DNA of 64,000 nt from Ostreococcus lucimarinus (Eukaryota): assembly GCA_000092065.1 (NCBI GenBank), contig CP000581.1. One strand, 5' to 3'. The notes below the pieces were generated by a model. It did not search any database. It was not told the origin of the DNA and worked only from the letters and a program-made list of their open reading frames with translations. Numbering within the stretch: the stretch's first letter is position 1; each line of letters begins with the position of its first letter. The translations under genes and the position numbers were made by a program. Of the stretch, positions 3,576-43,661 are shown piece after piece.

Positions 3576-6290
3576 TTACAGGAGAGTGGCCCAAGCCTTG
3601 GCGGGCTGGACGCCGCGAGGGGCGTCGGCGGCGCCGCCGGTAGCGAGGGACGGAAACGCCTCCTCGCATTCGACGACTGGGACTCTCGTTTTGCCTTTAC
3701 GCGAACGAACGCGCTTGGTCTTGGACTGTGCGTTTGATGAATCGTTCCCGGCGGCGGAATCGTCGGACTGCGGGGTGATGGTGTGCTCCCCGGGAGACCC
3801 TTCCATCGGCGAGGACTGGGAGGAGTCTTCGGCGACGAGCGCTGGCGTCTTGGGGCGATCGTCCACGACGGGTTTCTCCGCGTTGGCCTTGAGAACGTCG
3901 ATAGGTGCTGATCCTTTCGGACCCCACGAAGGCTTTACCGTCGATGGCGTCGCCGCCACGTCGTCAAGCGAAGCCGAAGATGTATCCGTCAACGCGACAT
4001 TGACAGCCAGCTTGTCCTCGATGTCTTTTTTCAGCATGGCCGCCATCGTGACTGCTTTGTCTTCCTCGCTCGTCGGCTGCTCGTTCATGAACTTGGCCGG
4101 AAGCTTTGCGACTCCGCTCCACGCTTGTGGAAACGTGGGCGACGGCCTCGGCGATCGAGTTCGCCGCGGCGCGTCATCCTCGATCGAGGATGACGCCTCT
4201 TTGGCTGGATCGACCTCTTTGGCTGGATCGACGTGCGGAAAGTGCGCGCTCATATCCTCGAAAACAGCAGTAGAGTTGTTGTCGCTCGCGTAACCACGCT
4301 TCGCCGTGCCCAGTGGCGGCACTCCCGGAGGAGGAGGTGGTGGAACAGCCGATTGGAAACTTTGTTGCGCCGCGCTCTTGCTCGCCTTGTTGCTCCTAGA
4401 CGCGTTTCGAGAACGGTTGTACGGAGGACGATTACCGTTGCCTCGTCGATTATTGTTGTTGGAACTTCGACGCCGGTCATCACCACTTCGTCTTGCCGCG
4501 ATCGTTCGCTCGTGCGCGCGTCGGTGGTGGAACACACCAAAAGCCAAATGCTCACGAATGGTGTCAAGACATCCGGTAAAGATGTCATTGATGCCCGGCG
4601 CGGTGGCGTCCTCGGGGATGGGCGGCTGCTTACTATCTGCACCATCGCACGAGTCGTGCTGTTCGCCAGAATCGTCCGAAAAAAAACTCTGAGGCGGTGA
4701 TGTGGACATTTGCGCGCTGTCGTCGTCGATTGATCGTCGCTCGTCACTCGTCGGAACTCGCTGCTCATCCCCGAGAGCGTCCCAGCGACCCCAGTGGATG
4801 CCGCGCTCTTGTTCAGAGAGTGAACCCATGGACTCGCTTCGCTTGTGAAGACCGCCGCGCTCTGGCGAGGGTGGATCGCCGAGCGTGGGCCAATGGTTCG
4901 CCGCGACGGCTGACGACTCGTCGGCTTCCGCGTCCTTCGACTCCGAGTCTTCCATGTTCAGCTGTCTCGGTTGTAACTCGTCCACGACCGAGCGCGTGTG
5001 AGGATGCGTCGCGAGCGCGGTCGCCGGTGTCGTGCCTTCGACGAGGCAGCTTCTCGAACGTAAAGCGATGGCGCTTGTCGGCATTCCCATGGGCGTCATT
5101 GAAACCTCATCGGCGTGCGAGCATCCCCCCGGCGTGTCCGGCGCGTGCGGAAGCGGGTAAAGTAAACGCCTGTGACGTAAGATGTTCCCAAACATTTCCA
5201 CGAACCCTCGCAACACACCGACGTCATCGCGCGCCGCAGAAGAGGCCATCAGCGCATCCAGACGTTGCGCTCCAAGCTTGAGCGCCGCGCGCACGCGTCT
5301 ATAATTGCCGCAAGATACAGAGCGGCCTAAGTTGTTATTGGGTAAAAGAGGATCGATGATGTTCATGTACTTCACGGTCACGGGCGCTGAGCTCGCCGCC
5401 GCGCGCATGAACTCGCAACTGTACGTCGACAACATCGTCCGCATGAACTCTTCGGTGATCAAACCACCCTCCAGACACTCGTCGGGCGGCGTCGCGATGC
5501 CCTCGATCGCCACCGGTCCGTGAATCGTGAGCGCGTAGCCTTCCCAATCAAACTCGGCGAAAACGCTCAAAAGCTTGTGCAACACGGACAACGGGCACGT
5601 CAAGTCGGCGTGATACTTGTTGATGATGTACAAAACGAGCGTCTCCAACGCGTACGTGGAAATCAAGGCGTGATGCGCTCCTAAGATGCGCCCCTCGTAA
5701 AATCCCCAAGCCTTGACGAGAATGATCGAGCGCACGAACAAATCGTCCCTACCGATGAACGCGTTCATCTCTTCTAAAAATCCGAGCGACGCCAAGCCAC
5801 CAAACTGATTGGCGCTCACGTCCACCATCATCCCGTCCACGATGCACTTCATCAGCCGTACCTCTGCGTTGATCACGCTCACCTCACTCACCGCGAACTC
5901 GTGGGGCGGATCCGCCTCCGCCTCCGCCTTCTCGATGTGTTTCCTAAACTTGGTCGTCCACTGCGCCTTATCGATCACGCGATGATCACCCAGCAAGCAC
6001 ACGTCGATGTCGCCGTCCGGAAGATACGCCCGCAGCGGCACGCTCCCGTACGCGCTCACCAGCGTGTGCGCCGTCCCGAAGCACTCCTGCGCCAACTGTT
6101 TGATGTGCTCAAACACCGCCCGTCGCCGAATCTCGCTCATCTCCGTCGGCCGCAGCGACGCCACGAGCTCGTTCGTCAGCGTCTCCAGTCCGCCCGCGTC
6201 CCCGCTCGCGCTCGCGCGTCCGCTCCCCGCGCTCCGCTCCCGTTTCGCCCCTCCCGGCGCGCGTTCGCTCGCGTACGGGCACCTCGACAT
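3576..6290 (-). CDS. Pol-beta-superfamily nucleotidyltransferase (non-canonical poly(A) polymerase / PAP-OAS1 substrate-binding-domain type) with a long low-complexity C-terminal tail.
   Basis: N-terminal region reads HIKQLAQECFGTAHTLVSAYGSVPLRAYLPDGDIDVCLLG, the GS...DxD nucleotidyltransferase signature. It is followed by a PAP-associated-like region and a P/S/R/N-rich tail. Confidence 0.55.
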   Translation of the reverse strand: MSRCPYASERAPGGAKRERSAGSGRASASGDAGGLETLTNELVASLRPTEMSEIRRRAVFEHIKQLAQECFGTAHTLVSAYGSVPLRAYLPDGDIDVCLLGDHRVIDKAQWTTKFRKHIEKAEAEADPPHEFAVSEVSVINAEVRLMKCIVDGMMVDVSANQFGGLASLGFLEEMNAFIGRDDLFVRSIILVKAWGFYEGRILGAHHALISTYALETLVLYIINKYHADLTCPLSVLHKLLSVFAEFDWEGYALTIHGPVAIEGIATPPDECLEGGLITEEFMRTMLSTYSCEFMRAAASSAPVTVKYMNIIDPLLPNNNLGRSVSCGNYRRVRAALKLGAQRLDALMASSAARDDVGVLRGFVEMFGNILRHRRLLYPLPHAPDTPGGCSHADEVSMTPMGMPTSAIALRSRSCLVEGTTPATALATHPHTRSVVDELQPRQLNMEDSESKDAEADESSAVAANHWPTLGDPPSPERGGLHKRSESMGSLSEQERGIHWGRWDALGDEQRVPTSDERRSIDDDSAQMSTSPPQSFFSDDSGEQHDSCDGADSKQPPIPEDATAPGINDIFTGCLDTIREHLAFGVFHHRRAHERTIAARRSGDDRRRSSNNNNRRGNGNRPPYNRSRNASRSNKASKSAAQQSFQSAVPPPPPPGVPPLGTAKRGYASDNNSTAVFEDMSAHFPHVDPAKEVDPAKEASSSIEDDAPRRTRSPRPSPTFPQAWSGVAKLPAKFMNEQPTSEEDKAVTMAAMLKKDIEDKLAVNVALTDTSSASLDDVAATPSTVKPSWGPKGSAPIDVLKANAEKPVVDDRPKTPALVAEDSSQSSPMEGSPGEHTITPQSDDSAAGNDSSNAQSKTKRVRSRKGKTRVPVVECEEAFPSLATGGAADAPRGVQPAKAWATLL

Positions 6291-6739
6291 CGTCGTCCGT
6301 CGTCCGTCGCGCCCGTCGCCCTCGCCCGCGTCCCTCTCGCGTGCCTTTCGCGCGTCGTCGGCGTCGCGCGTCGGCGCCGCTCGAATCCGTCGTCGCGTCG
6401 CGATCGCGTCGGCGTCGTCGTCTCGCGTCGATCGCGCGCGCCGTCGGGTCGATCGCGCGCGAGAGTTCGCCCGCGCGCGCGTCGCGCGCCTCGGCGCGCT
6501 CGCGCGTCGTCGTCTCGCGCCGGCGCCGTCGCGCGCGCGGTGCCGCCCTATCCGGACGGGGCGTCGCGCGCGTGATTCCGCTGTCTCACTGTTTGCCCAT
6601 AGGATGGGCGTCCGCCGCGGCGACCGCGCGTCGCGCGCCGCAGAGCGCGGCGCGCGGCGACGCGAGCGCGCGTTTTCGAAGGCGCGACTCGCGCGCGCGC
6701 GGCGACCGCGACTCGCGCGCGCGCGCGGGCGCGACGGCG

Positions 6740-7399
6740 ATGGCGCGGCGACGCCAACGTTCGAAGTGGCGGTTGACGACGACGCTGACGGCGACGACGC
6801 TCGCGACGGCGATCGGACGCGCGCGCGTGGGCCGAGCGCAGTTCCAGCGCGCGACGGATTACGAGTATCGCGTGTGCGCGGAACAGCCGGGAGAGTACGC
6901 GACGACGCAGACGGACGGGACGACGGCGACGCGGGCGCGGTGCGTGTCGCTGGACGCGGGCGAGCTCGGGTTCTGCGCGGGGATCGCGTACGACGCGTGC
7001 GTGCGCACGAATCCGCCGTCGACGCAGGATAAACGCGTGCTGAGCGCGTTCGAGAGGATGACGAAGATGCAAAGCGCGATGGCGCCGGAATTAGCGGGGG
7101 AGCCGACGTGCCTGGTGGTGATGGCGGAGTACATGTGCGCGGTGGCGTTTCCGAGGTGCGATCCGGATCCGTTGGAGGCGACGAAGTACAACGAGGTGCC
7201 GGCGTGTTGGGATTATTGCACGAATTCGGTGTTCGGGTGCACGGGGGAGATGGCGACGGCGATGGACGTGTGTAATCGTTCGGTGTACGCGGGGGTGGTG
7301 GTGGCGCAAGACAGGCCAGACGTTAAGTGCGTGAGCGGGGCGGGCGAGTTGGTGTTGATCACCGTCGCGATGATGACCGTCGCGCTCGTGCTCCTGTAG
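6740..7399 (+). CDS. Secreted cysteine-rich protein A: signal peptide, 12-Cys domain with Frizzled-CRD-like spacing, and a hydrophobic GPI-anchor-like C-terminus.
   Basis: Met 134 of ORF 6341..7399. The core reads TC-LVVMAEYM-C-AVAFPR-C-x15-C-WDY-C-TNSVFG-C. The C-terminus KCVSGAGELVLITVAMMTVALVLL resembles an omega site plus hydrophobic tail. It is paralogous to the convergent gene at 7445..8296. Confidence 0.6.
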   Translation: MARRRQRSKWRLTTTLTATTLATAIGRARVGRAQFQRATDYEYRVCAEQPGEYATTQTDGTTATRARCVSLDAGELGFCAGIAYDACVRTNPPSTQDKRVLSAFERMTKMQSAMAPELAGEPTCLVVMAEYMCAVAFPRCDPDPLEATKYNEVPACWDYCTNSVFGCTGEMATAMDVCNRSVYAGVVVAQDRPDVKCVSGAGELVLITVAMMTVALVLL

Positions 7400-7444
7400 A
7401 TTTGGGTTTAGCTAGGTACCCGTACTGTACAATACTATCGCGCG

Positions 7445-8296
7445 CTAAGCTGCTATCGACGCGAACGACGCGAAAACCGTCGCGGCGAACAACGCGACTC
7501 GCGCGCTCGCGAGGGCGGCGCCGCCCGTGCACTTACCCGGCGACGGCTCGAAAATCGCCGTGCCGTTTTCCCCGTTCGGTTTCCTGCCGTAAATATAATT
7601 CCCATTCGCTTTCCCTTCGGCGTCGTTGTAGTACGTGCCGTTGCCGTCGTACGAGCCGCCCGTGTAAAACGTCGCCGGCGTGTTTCCGCCGAAATCTTGC
7701 TCCTCGTACTCCAAACCACAGTTTATGAACGCTGAGTTCGCCTCCCCGCACGATTTTTTCACCGCGATGCACGTCGCCGTGCACGTGGGCATGAACCGCG
7801 TCTCGTCCACGTTGCACCGACTAAAGTATTCGAAACAAAACCATCGTCGCAGCGTCGCTCGACACCCCGCCGTCGGTTCGAACGTCAGCTGTCGAATCAA
7901 ATTCAAGTACTGCTTTCGCAGCGCTTGCTCCATCAGATCCACGCTCGCTTGATCGCTCGTCCCCGCCGCCAGCGTCGCCGCGCTCCCTCGTTTACAAAAC
8001 GTGTACTGCACGCGTTCGTCGCAAAACTCGAGCGTCACCGCGTCGCTCGACACGCACCCGTGTCGGCACTTGAAGTACTCCGCGGAGTCCGTGGAGCCGC
8101 CGATCGCGGAGGCGTCGGCGAAGAAGTCGGCGCTGACGTCGGTGTTGATGTTGGAGACGTCGAACGACAGGTACGGATGCGGCGACGACGCGCTCGTCGC
8201 GTCCGCGCGCGCGAGGCGAGCGAACGCCGCGCACGAAGCGATGAGCGACGCGACGACGCGCGCGCGGGCGCGAGGACGAGGACCCGCGCGCGACAT
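7445..8296 (-). CDS. Secreted cysteine-rich protein B, paralog of A: signal peptide, 12-Cys domain with identical Frizzled-CRD-like spacing, GPI-anchor-like C-terminus.
   Basis: Met 91 of ORF 7445..8566 gives MSRAGPRPRARARVVASLIASCAAFARLARA (signal). The core reads GC-RATLRRWF-C-FEYFSR-C-NVDETRFMPT-C-TAT-C-IAVKKS-C. The C-terminus is GKCTGGAALASARVALFAATVFASFASIAA. Confidence 0.6.
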   Translation of the reverse strand: MSRAGPRPRARARVVASLIASCAAFARLARADATSASSPHPYLSFDVSNINTDVSADFFADASAIGGSTDSAEYFKCRHGCVSSDAVTLEFCDERVQYTFCKRGSAATLAAGTSDQASVDLMEQALRKQYLNLIRQLTFEPTAGCRATLRRWFCFEYFSRCNVDETRFMPTCTATCIAVKKSCGEANSAFINCGLEYEEQDFGGNTPATFYTGGSYDGNGTYYNDAEGKANGNYIYGRKPNGENGTAIFEPSPGKCTGGAALASARVALFAATVFASFASIAA

Positions 8297-8415
8297 CGTC
8301 GAGACGACGGACGCGAAGTGACGCGCGCGCGTCGAGCGCCGCGAGGGGAGCGTAGCTATTTCGTCGTCTGATGTTTCAACGGATTTCAACGCCGAGGAGC
8401 GAAGGGGCGTCGCGG

Positions 8416-9506
8416 TCAGGCGCGTCGCGCGGCGTCGCGAAGGCCGCCCTGCTTGGCGAGCATTTTGTCTTTGATGGCGCGGACGCTCTTGTCGCGGCCG
8501 GACCATAAATCGTCGTCGTCGCCCTTTCGCGCCGCGCTCGTGTCTTCCGCGGCCAAGTGCGTCCATTTGGTTTGGCCGGCGCGACCGAATTTTCCCTTGC
8601 GAACTTGCATGGCGGCGGGGAGGATGGACTTGTCGAACTTTTCCTCCGCCGTCGGGGCGGAGAAGTCGCGCTTGTAAATTTCATCTGGGCCCGCGGTGCC
8701 GAACGCGTCGTCGGCCGATTCTTGGAAGAACGCGCCCTTGTGGTAATACTTCTGCATGAACGCCATCTTGGGTTTTTCCTTTTCCTGCTCCGCGCGTTTC
8801 GCGAGGCGTTTGGCGTGATACAAGTCGCGCTCTTCCTCGGTCATCGAGCGGATGCGTTCTTGCTCTTCGCGTTCGCGGAAAATCAATTCGCGCTGGATCC
8901 TATCCGTTTTCAAACGCTCGAGCTCGCGGGACTTCCACGCGTCGAATTCGAGGGCATCGTCGAGCTCGTCGTCGGTGTCCACGTCGCTCGGTTCCATCTC
9001 GTCCATCGCCGCCGCGAGAGCCTCTTCGCGCTTGACTTCGACTTCGACCAACTTTTTGCTCTCCGCCTTCTTCGCCGCCTTGGCCGCCTCCGTCTTCGCC
9101 GCCTCGGCGTCGAGTTCGGCCAGCATCTTATCCCGCTCCTCGATCGTGTCTCGCTCAATCTTACGCACGAACACGGGCTTGAACATTTTCCGCGCGCCGC
9201 CGCCGCCGGAATCGCTCGCGTCGCTATCCGTCTCGTATTCGCTATCCGTTTCGTACGACGACGACGACGCCCCACCGTTCCCCGGTTCGCCCGTCGCCAA
9301 CGCACCGTCGCGTCGCGCTACCGCAACCGCGCCGCCCGCGCCGCCGTCCTCCGCATCCTCCTCGTCGTCGTCCTCCGCGCGTTCCGTCTCTCGAGCCGCC
9401 GCGCGCGCTCGAATCGCCGCCCGTCTCGCGTCTCGCGCCTCCTCGTCCTCGCTCTCCGACGAGCTCGCGTCGCTCGCGCTCGACGACGCGTTCCCTCGCG
9501 CGCGTC

Positions 9507-9544
<38 letters not shown>

Positions 9545-9903
9545 TCGCGTTCCGTTCGCGTCCGCGCGAACCCGAGCGCGTCCTCGTCCTCTTCCTCGCT
9601 CTCGCTCTCGCGCGTCGCGCGTCCGTCGTCGACGCCCGCGCGGTGTCTCCGCACCACCGTCGTCGCGCGTCGCATCGCGTCCTCGCGCGCGCCGCTTCGC
9701 GCCGCTTCCTCGCGCGCGCGATCGACCGCGAAGGCGTTGGCGGCCGCCCTCAATTTCGACGCCCGCTCGTCGTCCATCGCCGCGCGCGCGGCGCCCGCGC
9801 GCCCCATTTTCGCGCGCGTTTCTTCGCGTCCGTCTCGCGCGCGCGTTTCTTCGCGACGTCGGCGCGCGCGCGTGTGCCGACGCGGCGCGTCGCGCGCGCG
9901 CAC
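8416..9903 (-). CDS. MFAP1: Microfibrillar-associated protein 1 family (spliceosomal B-complex protein). The start may instead be the internal Met at 9807.
   Basis: The C-terminal half matches the MFAP1 domain: KYYHKGAFFQE...IYKRDFSAPTAEEKFDKSILPAAMQVRKGKFGRAGQTKWTHLAAEDTS. The N-terminal half is an acidic/low-complexity region. Confidence 0.75.
9508..9543. repeat. (GTC)12 coding microsatellite.
   Basis: A perfect GTC trinucleotide run on the plus strand encodes a 12-residue poly-Thr tract in the minus-strand MFAP1 gene. Confidence 0.85.
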
Positions 9904-9940
9904 CCCTCGGCGCGCACACGCCGACGCGCGGCGTCGCGCG
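9904..9940. promoter_or_regulatory. Very short head-to-head intergenic region shared by MFAP1 (minus) and beta-carbonic anhydrase (plus); candidate bidirectional promoter.
   Basis: The two start codons lie 40-130 nt apart on opposite strands. Confidence 0.3.
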
Positions 9941-10735
9941 ATGCCGTCCGACGCGATCCGCGACTTGATCGCGGGCTACCGCGATTTTCGCGCCGCGCAC
10001 TTCGACGCGCGCCGGGACGCGCGCGCGCGCGACGGCGGCGCGAGCGGCGCGCGATGCGTGCGGTCGACGCTTCGCGAGCTGTCCGAGCGCGGACAAAACC
10101 CGCGCGCGCTCGTCGTGGCGTGCTGCGACAGCCGCGCGGACCCGGCGATCGTGTTCGACACCGCGCCCGGGGACGTGTTCGTGGTGCGGAACGTCGCGAA
10201 CCTGGTGCCGCCGTACACGGGGGTCGATTTCGGGCACCACGGGACGTGCGCGGCGGTGGAGTACAGCGTCGCGCACCTGGAGGTGCCGCTCATCGTCGTC
10301 ATGGGACACACGCAGTGCGGCGGCGCCGCGGCGGGACTGCGAAAGTACGGTGGCGACCCGAACGGCGATCCCGCGGTGTTCGCGGCGAACGAGGCGACCG
10401 GGGAGGGGTTCATCGGATCGTGGGTCGCGCTCACGAAGACGAGCGTGCGCGAGGTGTGCGAAAAGTACGACCCGGACATTCGCGCGCGAATGCTCGAGCA
10501 CGAGTTGGTGCGAAACAGCGTGAGGAATTTAGCGACGTTTCCGTTCGTGCGGGAGCGAATGGATAAGGGGACGCTGGAGGTGATCGGCGCGGTGTTCAAC
10601 GTCTTCGACGGGACGTTGACAATTTTAGACGCCGAGACGGGCGAGTTCGTCGCGCCGGATATATTCGACGACGACGCCCGCGCGTCGGGCGGCGACGACG
10701 TCGCACCGGATGCGAAGCGCGCGAAAGCGGCGTGA
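9941..10735 (+). CDS. Beta-class carbonic anhydrase.
   Basis: Internal Met of ORF 8852..10735, in frame. Motifs include VVACCDSRADPAIVFDTAPGDVFVVRNVANLV and HTQCGGAAAG, the beta-CA zinc ligands Cys/His/Cys. Confidence 0.8.
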   Translation: MPSDAIRDLIAGYRDFRAAHFDARRDARARDGGASGARCVRSTLRELSERGQNPRALVVACCDSRADPAIVFDTAPGDVFVVRNVANLVPPYTGVDFGHHGTCAAVEYSVAHLEVPLIVVMGHTQCGGAAAGLRKYGGDPNGDPAVFAANEATGEGFIGSWVALTKTSVREVCEKYDPDIRARMLEHELVRNSVRNLATFPFVRERMDKGTLEVIGAVFNVFDGTLTILDAETGEFVAPDIFDDDARASGGDDVAPDAKRAKAA

Positions 10736-40696: not shown

Positions 40697-43661
40697 TTAC
40701 TTTCGAGAACCGCGCGTTCTACTACTTTCTTCCAACCTTGAATTCTTTAACTTTTCCAACATGATACACGCGCGTTCTCCTATCCAACCGCATATAGTTT
40801 TGAGCTTCCAGTCTTCGCCCTCGGGACCGAGCGTGATTAAAAGAAGCGATATGAAGACGAGCGCCCACACGAGAGAGCTCGCGATTGTCGTGGTGATCAA
40901 AAACGCGAATTTCGCGAAAAATTGTAGGGTACATAGCCAAAGGATCGAACCACTTATAACAGTCGTCACCGCTGAGGCGACGATCGACACGCCCATCGTT
41001 GCGAGCGCGTATTGCGTTCGATCGCCTCTCGACTTCATCGCCGCCGGCGCCTCGACGTAAGCGTTTCCTAAATGCACGCCGTAATCCACGCTGAGGCCGA
41101 TGAGAATGACCGCCGCAATAGTTTCGCGAATCCCTAAACTCCAGTGCATGACTCGATAAACGCCGATCCCAAGCACGCTTACCACGACGCCGGCGACGCT
41201 CACTGAACAAATGGACGCGACCAACACGTTCCCCGTGCTGATGCATAAGACGACAAACGCCATACAAAAGCAGATGCTAATTCCTTGAAATGTATTATCC
41301 ACCAACGTCTCTTGCATTCGCATCCATGTCCAAGCGACGTATGCAGTTTGTGACCCGCTCTTTACGCCGTCTGGGGCGACTTCATTCAGATTTCGGATCA
41401 AACCTTCGAATTCGTCGTGCACCCCTCGAGAGACGCTCGCTGGCGCTTGATGCATGAGGGTCGATTTCGTGGATACTTTCACAAAAAATAATTCGGGTTC
41501 ACCAGAGTTTTTGTTTGGTCGAAATCCAATTTGATGCGCGTATCGTGATCCCACCGACGACGAGCGAAACTCCCAAAGCTCGTCGAGGAAGCTGTCTCGA
41601 GGAACTGGAAAGTTTTCTTCGCCCACGTAATCGCGAAACGCCTCCATGAAACAATCCACGTCGCGCGTGAGTCGACCATCTCTACATCCTCTCGAAGAGC
41701 AGCTCGCGTGACGAAGCGTGAGACAGCTATTCAAAATGTGTACCTGCGATACCTCTGCGGAAACGTCGAAAGATTCGTCCAATTGCAATCTGCCCCTCGA
41801 CGCCAAATCCCATTGCGAAACGCTCGACATGTCCACGCCGAGCAAGCCCCAGAACACGTCCACAGCCACAACCAAGTCGTCGTCTGAACGCAAAAAGGCA
41901 GTCTGGTCGCGATCACTAAACTGCTGTACGAGGTGTTTCGATGAGTACCAGCGCTCGATTTTGGAGGGTGTCTCAAGACGCACGCAAAATCGTGCCGCGA
42001 CGATGAACATAGCCGTGAACGCACCGATCGTAACGAATCGTACGAATGGCCGCCTGAGCGTTTGATAGAACGGCCCGTGGAAGAATCGTTCAACACGACC
42101 GAGTTCTTTTGATTCGACGATCTCACTTTCGTTGATTTCTTTGCTCGCCGGCAAGAATTGGCGCCACGTCATGTTCTCGAAGTATCGTGCAAAAAGCACG
42201 AGAGCGGCTGGGAACAAGAGCACGTTTACGACGAACAATACAGCGATCATCGTCGCCGAAACTATCCCAAAAGCCGCCAGTGGCGTTATCGGTGACCACG
42301 CTGTGGCTAAAAACGCTCCTGTGGTTGTGAAAGACGTCACGAAGATGGCTTTCGACGCCCTGTCGGTGGAGTACATCAGGCGGTCGAAGAGAGCATCGCC
42401 GACTTCCGCTTCCGTCGCGCTCTGACGAAACGCATCAAAGTACACGAAAACATCATCGGCACCAATGCCGAGACAAATGAATATACTGAGCGCTTGAATG
42501 TTTCCGACGTATGGGATGCGAAAAATGAAACGGTAGATGAGCAACGCGATCGGGAAGGACACGAGAATCTCAAACATGCCGCACGTTGCGATGAACAGAG
42601 ATCTCGTGTTGAACGCCATGTACAGCCACACCGCGGCGATCGAGGCAATGGCCCACGCCAAGTCGCTCGCAATCACTCGGGCTGAGTCGCGCTCACGCAA
42701 GAATTCAGCATCCCAACGGGTGATCAAAGTAGCCCCCTTCGCGCGTTCGCGCGTTGACGTCATGTAAGGAGAGCTGACGAAGCTCCCTCGCATGCCGTAT
42801 CGACGAAACAGCGCGGTCTCGATGGGGTCAAGAAACGAAGCGAGCATCGCCTCTTGTTCATCCGGTCTGTCACTCGAACTCACGAATCCACGAAACGGTG
42901 TCCCAACGGGATACTTGGCGCGCGTGATTCCGACAGTCGCCGCGGTCGAGTCGAAATCGCCTAGAAAATATCCAAACGCGCTTAAATTGGTCGCGAATAC
43001 GTCCCGCACAACGGCGTCGACGTCGTCGACCATCGTTCCATCTTGATCGAAGAAATACGTCAGCGGCGAGAGATACGGCACACATCCGCGCGCGATGCCG
43101 AGCTCATCGTACTCGATTTGACAAAAATCTTCGTACCTGGCGAGCGCGATGGCTTCCACGTCTCGCATCGCCAGCAAGTTTTCTCTCGTAAACACACTCT
43201 TTCCGCGCACCGAGCTTTCCCACTGAAACATAAACGTCCCGCGTGCATTTTCTTCCGACCTCTCGCGCGTCTGGTGCGCCGTCGCCGCGCTTCCATTCGA
43301 CGCGTACCTGCGTTCGCGCCGCCGACGCGCGTTTCGTCAGTCTCGCCTCGCCTCGACGACGCCGACCGCCGCGCCTCGACCCCCCTCATCTCCCTCGTTC
43401 GACCCCCTCCCGCTCCGTCCTCGATCACGCGATCTCGTCTCGTCGCGCGCACCCGTCCAGCGTCTTCATCGCCATCCGCGCCGCGTCCGCGACGCTCGTG
43501 ATCCCATCCCTCGCGATGACCCACTCGCGCTCGCTCGGCGCTTGAAACTCCATCGCGCCGCCCAGGTACGACGCGAGCGCGCACGCCGTCGTCGCGATCG
43601 CGACGCACGACGCGCACGCGATCGGGCGTTCGTGCGCCGTCCTCGCGCATCGTCGCAGCAT
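40697..43661 (-). CDS. Patched/Dispatched-family RND-type membrane protein with a sterol-sensing domain. Two exons, about 43661..43453 and about 43307..40697.
   Basis: SSD motifs include SIFICLGIGADDVFVYFDAF, two TM bundles and two large loops. The main ORF lacks TM1, which lies in an upstream exon (MLRRCARTAHERPIACASCVAIATTACALASYLGG...KTLDG). Donor GG|GTGCGCGCGACG, branch GAGACTGACGAAACG and acceptor GCGAACGCAG|G join the two in phase. Confidence 0.65.
43308..43452 (-). other. Putative intron of the Patched-like gene (about 145 nt).
   Basis: Same donor, branch and acceptor grammar as the other introns in the window, and the phase is compatible. Exact boundaries are plus or minus a few nt. 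Confidence 0.5.

Follow-up and report, generated by a model that had tools for sequence, protein, structure and literature searches.

Frizzled-type cysteine-rich domains in two small, convergently encoded proteins of Ostreococcus lucimarinus with predicted signal peptides and GPI-signal-like tails

Within a 64,000-nucleotide stretch of the Ostreococcus lucimarinus genome (contig CP000581.1 of assembly GCA_000092065.1; hereafter the window), we analysed two convergent genes, designated A and B. The sequences of both proteins, profile searches and, in the case of A, the predicted fold support the presence of a Frizzled-type cysteine-rich domain (FZ-CRD) in each of them. Both are genuine and conserved genes, belonging to a picoalga of Mamiellophyceae type, and sequence comparison places them in a large unannotated family of small Frizzled-domain proteins of marine protists, which are probably held at the membrane by a glycosylphosphatidylinositol (GPI) anchor. 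The pair had been noticed before from the DNA sequence alone, and both open reading frames (ORFs) of that original prediction are present as it described them, tail to tail and on opposite strands (Table 1).

The Pfam comparison proposed together with the original prediction gave the Fz family (PF01392), at scores below its gathering cut-off, as the sole match at E<=10 for A (E 1.6e-4, 22.6 bits) and for B (E 1.9e-5, 25.6 bits), and no match to Folate_rec, NPC1_N or Mid1 (PF12929) was detected for either protein at that threshold. Pfam Fz was likewise the top match for 10 out of 10 orthologues tested, with 14-30.5 bits and E-values down to 6e-7. Profiles constructed from the A family only or from the B family only gave weak matches in PDB, which were consistently Frizzled and Smoothened CRDs, with Frizzled-5, -8 and -10 among those of the B-only profile. 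A profile containing the A and B families only was then searched without pre-filter against 1.84 billion representative proteins; 154 proteins were matched at E<=1e-3, with 29 of these passing E<=1e-10. This profile reached proteins with 3-9 Pfam Fz domains (131-851 bits) at library-wide E-values of 1e-12 to 1e-4, and Pfam Fz was found at E<=0.01 in 113 of its 130 scanned matches. With a wider profile made of 109 family members, 49 distinct PDB sequences were matched at E<=0.01, every one an FZ-CRD and the best being FZD8 (4.1e-6); this set comprises FZD1/2/3/5/6/7/8/10, MuSK, Smoothened, Ror2/Nrk, sFRP3 and FAM155A, the last at E 0.002 and aligned across almost the entire domain. The sub-threshold Pfam matches, the reciprocal profile link and the predicted fold of A agree well with the Frizzled-type domain originally claimed for both proteins.

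The structure of A (aa 30-200) was modelled by template-free AlphaFold2 from the 109-sequence alignment, and the model showed a mean predicted local distance difference test (pLDDT) score of 93.2 and a predicted TM-score (pTM) of 0.86, with the four core helices of the Fz fold present in the predicted structure. In a fold comparison more remote superfamily members came lower in the ranking (NPC1L1, 5.1; NPC1, 4.9; FAM155A, 4.8; Dally-like, 4.6; Juno, 4.3). A Foldseek search likewise put the MuSK Fz-CRD first (E 7.5e-4), and the viral structure library gave no match (best E 0.68). The structural comparison that had been recommended for the pair thus turned out in favour of the Fz fold with a confident model, and it covers A only.

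The published definition of FZ-CRDs is a set of ten conserved cysteines spaced as C*C*CX8CX6C*CX3CX6,7C*C*C (PMC4256011), and both A and B show this ten-cysteine pattern (see also PMC6938638). A contains 12 cysteines, at residues 46, 68, 79, 87, 124, 133, 140, 156, 160, 167, 178 and 197. B contains 13, with C22 inside the signal peptide and 12 in the mature protein (residues 77, 81, 92, 101, 145, 154, 161, 172, 176, 183, 193 and 256), so that the 12 matching cysteines first noted in the pair are indeed there. The ten-cysteine set consists of C68, C79, C124-x8-C133-x6-C140-x15-C156-x3-C160-x6-C167, C178 and C197 in A, and of C81, C92, C145-x8-C154-x6-C161-x10-C172-x3-C176-x6-C183, C193 and C256 in B; the core spacing given by the original prediction is therefore exact in both. 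In the six-frame translation of the whole window this core spacing occurs exactly twice, in A and in B, and it was absent from all 200 composition-matched random windows. Among 178 collected proteins, 152 carry it.

The assignment of the first two Fz cysteines had to be revised. The C-x7/8-C pair, described as lying about 36 residues upstream of the core, is at this distance in A (36) and farther away in B (43), and its equation in A (C79/C87) with Fz C1-C2 is probably one cysteine off. When the family profile was aligned with FZD8, 'lsfC..V.Y' fell on 'VPLCKGIGYNY' of FZD8, and in the Pfam Fz alignment of A residue 76 corresponds to profile position 6; these alignments place Fz C2 at C79 of A (C92 of B), and C1 is then C68 of A (C81 of B). 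The Pfam alignment of B is ambiguous on C1 and C2 and would permit the earlier reading of the C79/C87 type. C46 and C87 of A (C77 and C101 of B) probably constitute an extra, sixth cysteine pair. All 12 cysteine positions are conserved and nearly invariant across the 109-sequence family, indicating that the 12-cysteine form is the norm for this protist group, and a co-occurrence analysis gave no partner for the extra cysteines. Mapping from the disulfide pattern of Fz domains (C1-C5, C2-C4, C3-C8, C6-C10 and C7-C9) would give the same connectivity in A and B.

Table 1. Features of the A/B locus and the Patched-like gene in the window (positions are those of the window)
Feature	Position	Strand	Remarks
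Gene A	6740-7399	+	Single-exon coding sequence, 219 aa; compact A-type Fz-CRD protein (ORF list)
A signal peptide, aa 1-33	6740-6838	+	Arg-rich n-region, Thr/Ala/Leu h-region; putative cleavage site
A cysteine-rich domain, C46-C197	6875-7330	+	12 Cys; conserved N179-x-S181 sequon
A Fz core (Fz C3-C8), C-x8-C-x6-C-x15-C-x3-C-x6-C	7109-7240	+	Six-frame regex scan
A GPI-signal-like tail	7331-7396	+	VSGAG small omega triad, then ELVLITVAMMTVALVLL to the C-terminus; same in 18/18 A orthologues
Spacer between the A and B stop codons	7400-7444		45 bp; unchanged in metagenome scaffold L008
Gene B	7445-8296	-	Single-exon coding sequence, 283 aa; B-type Fz-CRD protein (ORF list)
B GPI-signal-like tail	7448-7528	-	TGGAA small triad, LASAR spacer, then VALFAATVFASFASIAA to the C-terminus; same in 11/11 B orthologues
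B cysteine-rich domain, C77-C256	7529-8068	-	12 Cys; Pfam Fz E 1.9e-5
B-type 62-aa Gly/Asn/Tyr-rich insert, aa 194-255	7532-7717	-	Between the 9th and 10th Fz Cys; two conserved NGT sequons
B Fz core, C-x8-C-x6-C-x10-C-x3-C-x6-C	7748-7864	-	Regex scan
B variable N-terminal linker, aa 32-76	8069-8203	-	Length and sequence vary even among near-identical strains
B signal peptide, aa 1-31	8204-8296	-	MSRAGPRPRARARVVASLIASCAAFARLARA, putative cut before D; hydrophobic core Kyte-Doolittle 2.3, A-x-A at the predicted cut
Patched/SSD/RND-type gene, 844-aa ORF	40697-43231	-	Pfam Patched SSD, MMPL and Sterol-sensing above cut-offs

As to the gene models, position 6740 is the sole in-frame ATG of the A ORF, and the in-frame ATGs farther upstream of B fall within the adjoining MFAP1 gene (end at 8416). 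The convergent arrangement makes a shared promoter impossible. A total of 18 orthologues of A, aligned end to end, and 11 of B were obtained from marine metagenomes and Ostreococcus tauri. The identity within these sets is 51-94%, and all cysteines are invariant, as are several proline, glycine and aromatic residues and the N-glycosylation sequons. A gene identical to A is present on the metagenome scaffolds L001 and L008, and the 283-aa B gene was also called on L001.

The claim that A and B are paralogous holds: BLASTP gave E 5e-5 with 31% identity across 87 aa, hhalign of the two family profiles gave E 2.9e-5, and the joint alignment of 24 orthologues gave about 23% identity between A and B with 11 invariant cysteine columns. 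After exhaustive profile search, one group of relatives scored 93-133 bits with the A-family hidden Markov model (HMM) and at most 14 with the B-family HMM, and for another group the preference was reversed (84-186 bits with the B-family HMM). For each of the two, much closer own-type relatives thus exist in organisms that are more distant, indicating that the split is old, and on these comparisons A and B are ancient paralogues representing two old subtypes. An origin of the inverted pair by recent duplication was accordingly rejected, given the low identity, the closer own-type relatives in more distant organisms, and an adjacency that is kept no better than the background synteny (see below).

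Both families show a basic n-region, a hydrophobic core, small residues at -3/-1 and a conserved mature N-terminus; in the alignment of A orthologues, G-R-A precedes the conserved mature start QF.RA.DY.YRVC. The N-terminal hydrophobic segments and conserved mature starts are in line with the signal peptides first suggested for both proteins. Invariant N-glycosylation sequons, N179-x-S181 in A and N219-G-T221 and N244-G-T246 in B, are consistent with a lumenal or extracellular protein. At the other end, all 29 orthologues terminate 22-27 residues past the last cysteine. Positions +2 to +4 are occupied by three small residues, and after a short spacer (often Arg/Lys) 12-17 hydrophobic residues extend to the C-terminus, the tail sequence itself being variable. 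A layout of last Cys-Thr-Gly/Ser/Pro, small residues and hydrophobic end was recognised in no fewer than 44 of the 118 distant relatives of small size, and the remainder includes many fragments. The omega-like sites and hydrophobic tails pointed out at the outset are therefore conserved in 29/29 orthologues, and from this conservation we infer GPI anchoring of A and B and, with it, a probable location at the cell surface. PIG-A, PIG-M, PIG-V and PIG-B, core GPI glycosyltransferases, have been reported in Ostreococcus and Micromonas (PMC3797821).

Our preferred reading, which we hold to be reasonably probable, is that A and B are small secretory proteins consisting of one FZ-CRD, with the ten Fz cysteines plus an extra N-terminal pair, that is GPI-anchored and serves as a binding module on the surface. 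The signal peptide would be cleaved, the domain N-glycosylated, and the C-terminal 20-25 residues most likely exchanged for the GPI anchor, so that the FZ-CRD would be displayed on the outside of the plasma membrane, the cell being taken to be wall-less. Among superfamily members that have been characterised, Frizzled binds lipid adducts, Smoothened and NPC1 bind sterols, the folate and riboflavin binders bind vitamins, and MuSK, ROR2 and FAM155A bind partner proteins; by analogy the CRD of A and B would most likely bind a hydrophobic or small ligand or a partner protein. Its role would then be capture or sensing and not Wnt reception, because we know of no Wnt in these algae. Any ligand proposed for A and B is an analogy of this kind: on inspection of the alignments, A and B show no recognisable conservation of the residues that line the lipid groove of FZD, and the structurally closest CRDs are those of MuSK and ROR2, so that no particular type of ligand is indicated.

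The following points weigh against this reading. A, B and the 10 orthologues tested all score under the Pfam Fz gathering cut-off (14-30.5 against 32.1 bits), and the TM-scores of the A model to solved CRDs are modest (0.40-0.47). The deep alignment behind this model holds more canonical Fz-like relatives, which may bias the prediction toward the Fz fold. AlphaFold gave a poor result for full-length B (pLDDT 44.6) from a shallow alignment of 24 Mamiellales-type sequences, and B was left out of the fold search. The calls of signal peptides and GPI tails are a rule-based reading with our own script, and the signal-peptide core of A is weak and Thr-rich in this strain, with a maximum Kyte-Doolittle value of 1.47 against 2-3.5 in most orthologues. 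As for the ligand, the CRDs of MuSK and ROR2, the nearest structural relatives, are without an open lipid groove, and a lipid ligand is thus not implied.

Among the competing explanations, a cysteine spacing that arose by chance, in a GC-rich genome, in two ORFs that are unrelated or without function has hardly any probability left. The GC-rich sequence does give many long spurious ORFs here, and the Pfam scores are sub-threshold, but the motif is found in no other frame and in none of the random windows, dozens of orthologues keep invariant cysteines and sequons, synteny is retained, genuine Fz proteins are recovered in the reciprocal profile search, and the structure model of A is confident. 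The orthologues, synteny, profile search and model together effectively refute it. We also regard as very improbable an assignment to the HFN-CRD branch (folate-receptor/NPC1-N/HHIP), which would imply vitamin or sterol transport. A signal peptide, one CRD, a GPI tail and 12 cysteines do resemble folate receptors and Juno, and weak Folate_rec matches occur in 9 of 130 relatives; against it, neither Folate_rec nor NPC1_N is matched by A or B at E<=10, the top sequence and fold matches are all FZ-type, and C4 and C5 are separated by x6, the FZ-CRD value, compared with x2-3 in HFN-CRDs (PMC4256011).

The one rival with a concrete mechanism, weakly supported, comes from fungal Mid1 and animal FAM155A: like these, A and B could assist a four-domain cation channel of the Cch1/NALCN/Cav type as its auxiliary subunits on the extracellular side. 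Mid1/FAM155 domains have about 12 cysteines, Mamiellales encode four-domain channels, FAM155A is among both the fold matches and the PDB matches of the family profile, and Pfam Mid1 is matched by 6 of 130 distant relatives. We nevertheless judge such a role distinctly unlikely: Pfam Mid1 misses A and B even at the most permissive threshold used (E<=10), the A-only and B-only profiles fail to reach FAM155A, both proteins are clearly nearer to Frizzled, MuSK and ROR2, and we noticed no channel gene close to the pair, the window not having been screened for channels. A different tether is unlikely as well, though to a lesser degree. The 12-17 hydrophobic residues could cross a membrane as a permanent, tail-less transmembrane anchor or form a segment retained in the endoplasmic reticulum, and GPI biosynthesis has been described as atypical in some chlorophytes (PMC3797821). 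However, the hydrophobic run stops at the C-terminus or 1-3 residues before it, leaving no cytoplasmic stop-transfer residues; the small-residue triad after the last cysteine, a classic GPI-signal signature, is seen in every one of the 29 orthologues and in many distant relatives; and Ostreococcus and Micromonas are reported with the full core set of GPI mannosyltransferases (PMC3797821).

When compared with known systems, the surface-displayed FZ-CRD that we favour for A and B differs from the CRDs of MuSK and ROR2/Nrk, which have x7 between C7 and C8 (PMC6938638). There the CRD is a single module within a large kinase that spans the membrane, whereas A and B consist of the CRD alone with a GPI-type signal, have x6 between C7 and C8, carry an extra N-terminal cysteine pair and beta-strands, and share 14-19% identity with them. 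Unlike Frizzled, Smoothened and sFRP (PF01392), A and B lack a seven-transmembrane or NTR module, have 12 cysteines rather than 10, stay under the Pfam gathering cut-off and, in the case of B, include the 62-aa insert in the C9-C10 loop. In overall build they are like the GPI-anchored CRD proteins of animals (folate receptors and Juno, the glypicans and RECK): a disulfide-rich CRD from the Fz/NPC1 superfamily follows a signal peptide, and a GPI tail serves to display this binding domain at the cell surface. With Mid1 and FAM155A (NALF1) they share the nature of divergent, non-Wnt FZ-CRDs occurring outside animals. The non-metazoan FZ-CRDs that were reportedly described by Pei and Grishin in 2012, in plants, chromalveolates and the Fz-like proteins of Dictyostelium, would likewise share the superfamily outside animals.

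The family to which A and B appear to belong comprises some 150 or more sequence clusters from marine protists; the relatives of known source are an orthologue from O. tauri and a transcript from MMETSP. Weak matches to FZ_RECK were observed in 18 relatives. The only named database entry that we found, BE221DRAFT_208596 of O. tauri (P0032), is labelled 'hypothetical protein'. Compared with the otherwise identical assembly-derived protein P0016, it is without 7 aa and without a 13-aa stretch holding two Fz cysteines, which suggests that false introns were predicted in the deposited model, an error that would hide the domain still more from annotation. Since the tested members fall under the Pfam Fz cut-off and the O. 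tauri entry is a truncated 'hypothetical' model, standard annotation misses the whole group. No paper linking Frizzled-type domains with Micromonas or Ostreococcus was found in the open-access literature. Published work already describes a wide distribution of FZ-CRD homologues among eukaryotes and traces them to an ancient origin in this domain of life (PMC4256011), and the initial view that Fz-type CRDs are unexpected in green algae was therefore overstated.

Some relatives have a different architecture. Five giant proteins (P0074, P0097, P0110, P0143 and P0172) of 2,000-3,400 aa have just one CRD of this family, located at the C-terminal end ('CNDTLxRFACYExFxRCD…') with a hydrophobic segment after it, and for P0074 no Pfam match was obtained at E<=1e-4. 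In other relatives the CRD is joined with papain-type protease, TM2, kringle or LDL-receptor-A domains.

Two regions are peculiar to B. The insert between its last two Fz cysteines follows the pattern …TYYTGG.Y..NGTYVN…YI.G.KPNGENGT.VFE…, which is common to distant B-type relatives too; it has no match in Pfam or PDB, and its AlphaFold confidence is low. The N-terminal half is the site of strain variation. Between the present strain and scaffold L008, A matches at 659 of 660 nt, and no difference is seen in the 45-bp spacer or in B from codon 145 on. At 7800-8550 of the window lies an island of about 750 bp with 82-95% identity and indels, flanked by sequences of 99-100% identity, which spans the 5' half of B and the intergenic region upstream of it and reaches into the 3' end of MFAP1. 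The island shows 16 replacement and 10 silent codon differences and a 19-codon Pro/Asn-rich indel, an insertion just past the B signal peptide. It could be due to recombination with a divergent allele, to an assembly chimera, or to selection, either relaxed or diversifying, acting on the N-terminal part of B, which is exposed.

The pair is located in a region (3576-10735) with the gene order cysteine protease, Dor1, poly(A)-polymerase-like, A, B, MFAP1, beta-carbonic anhydrase, SpoU methylase and flavokinase/HAD, and this order is retained across several metagenome contigs of Mamiellophyceae type (L001, L003 and L006). The segment from the poly(A)-polymerase-like gene through A (+), B (-), MFAP1 and carbonic anhydrase to SpoU is retained in two further lineages (L003/4 and L006/7). 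In one lineage (L005/L002, JGI sample 3300033183) the pair is split: B lies between MFAP1 and the poly(A)-polymerase-like gene, A is absent beside it, and an A-type gene is found on another contig between coatomer-epsilon and a methyltransferase gene. A special conservation of the A-B adjacency was therefore rejected, because the surrounding synteny is equally kept and the pair is broken once, and the adjacency carries no special functional message. A second A-type gene beside a distant B-type relative on L009 was also considered and rejected.

A Patched/SSD gene had been noted about 33 kb downstream of the pair, and a gene of this type is present (Table 1). Between the pair and this gene lie pescadillo, a cyclin and others, with a Myb-domain gene beyond it. 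The functional linkage mentioned with the original prediction was rejected, as unrelated housekeeping genes intervene and nothing links the pair to the Patched-like gene.

The Frizzled CRD is best known as a Wnt- or sterol-binding module in the signalling receptors of animals. The present findings indicate that this animal Wnt-receptor module also occurs free-standing, probably GPI-anchored on the surface, in picoalgae that to our knowledge are without Wnt and Hedgehog. The A/B family thus supports an ancient origin of the Fz fold independent of signalling, and it offers a simple system to ask for the original binding partner of the Fz domain. A more far-reaching proposal, to which we give a small chance of being right, is that the GPI-anchored, 12-cysteine single CRD represents a pre-animal minimal Frizzled domain, occurring throughout marine protists in the two ancient subtypes A and B and acting as a capture or sensing receptor for lipidic or vitamin-like compounds on wall-less picoplankton, possibly with A and B as a pair, and that the N-terminal divergence of B might reflect pressure from viruses or partners. 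Ostreococcus is transformable and supports gene targeting. If this proposal is true, the ancestral job of the Frizzled CRD would be directly studiable in a transformable alga.

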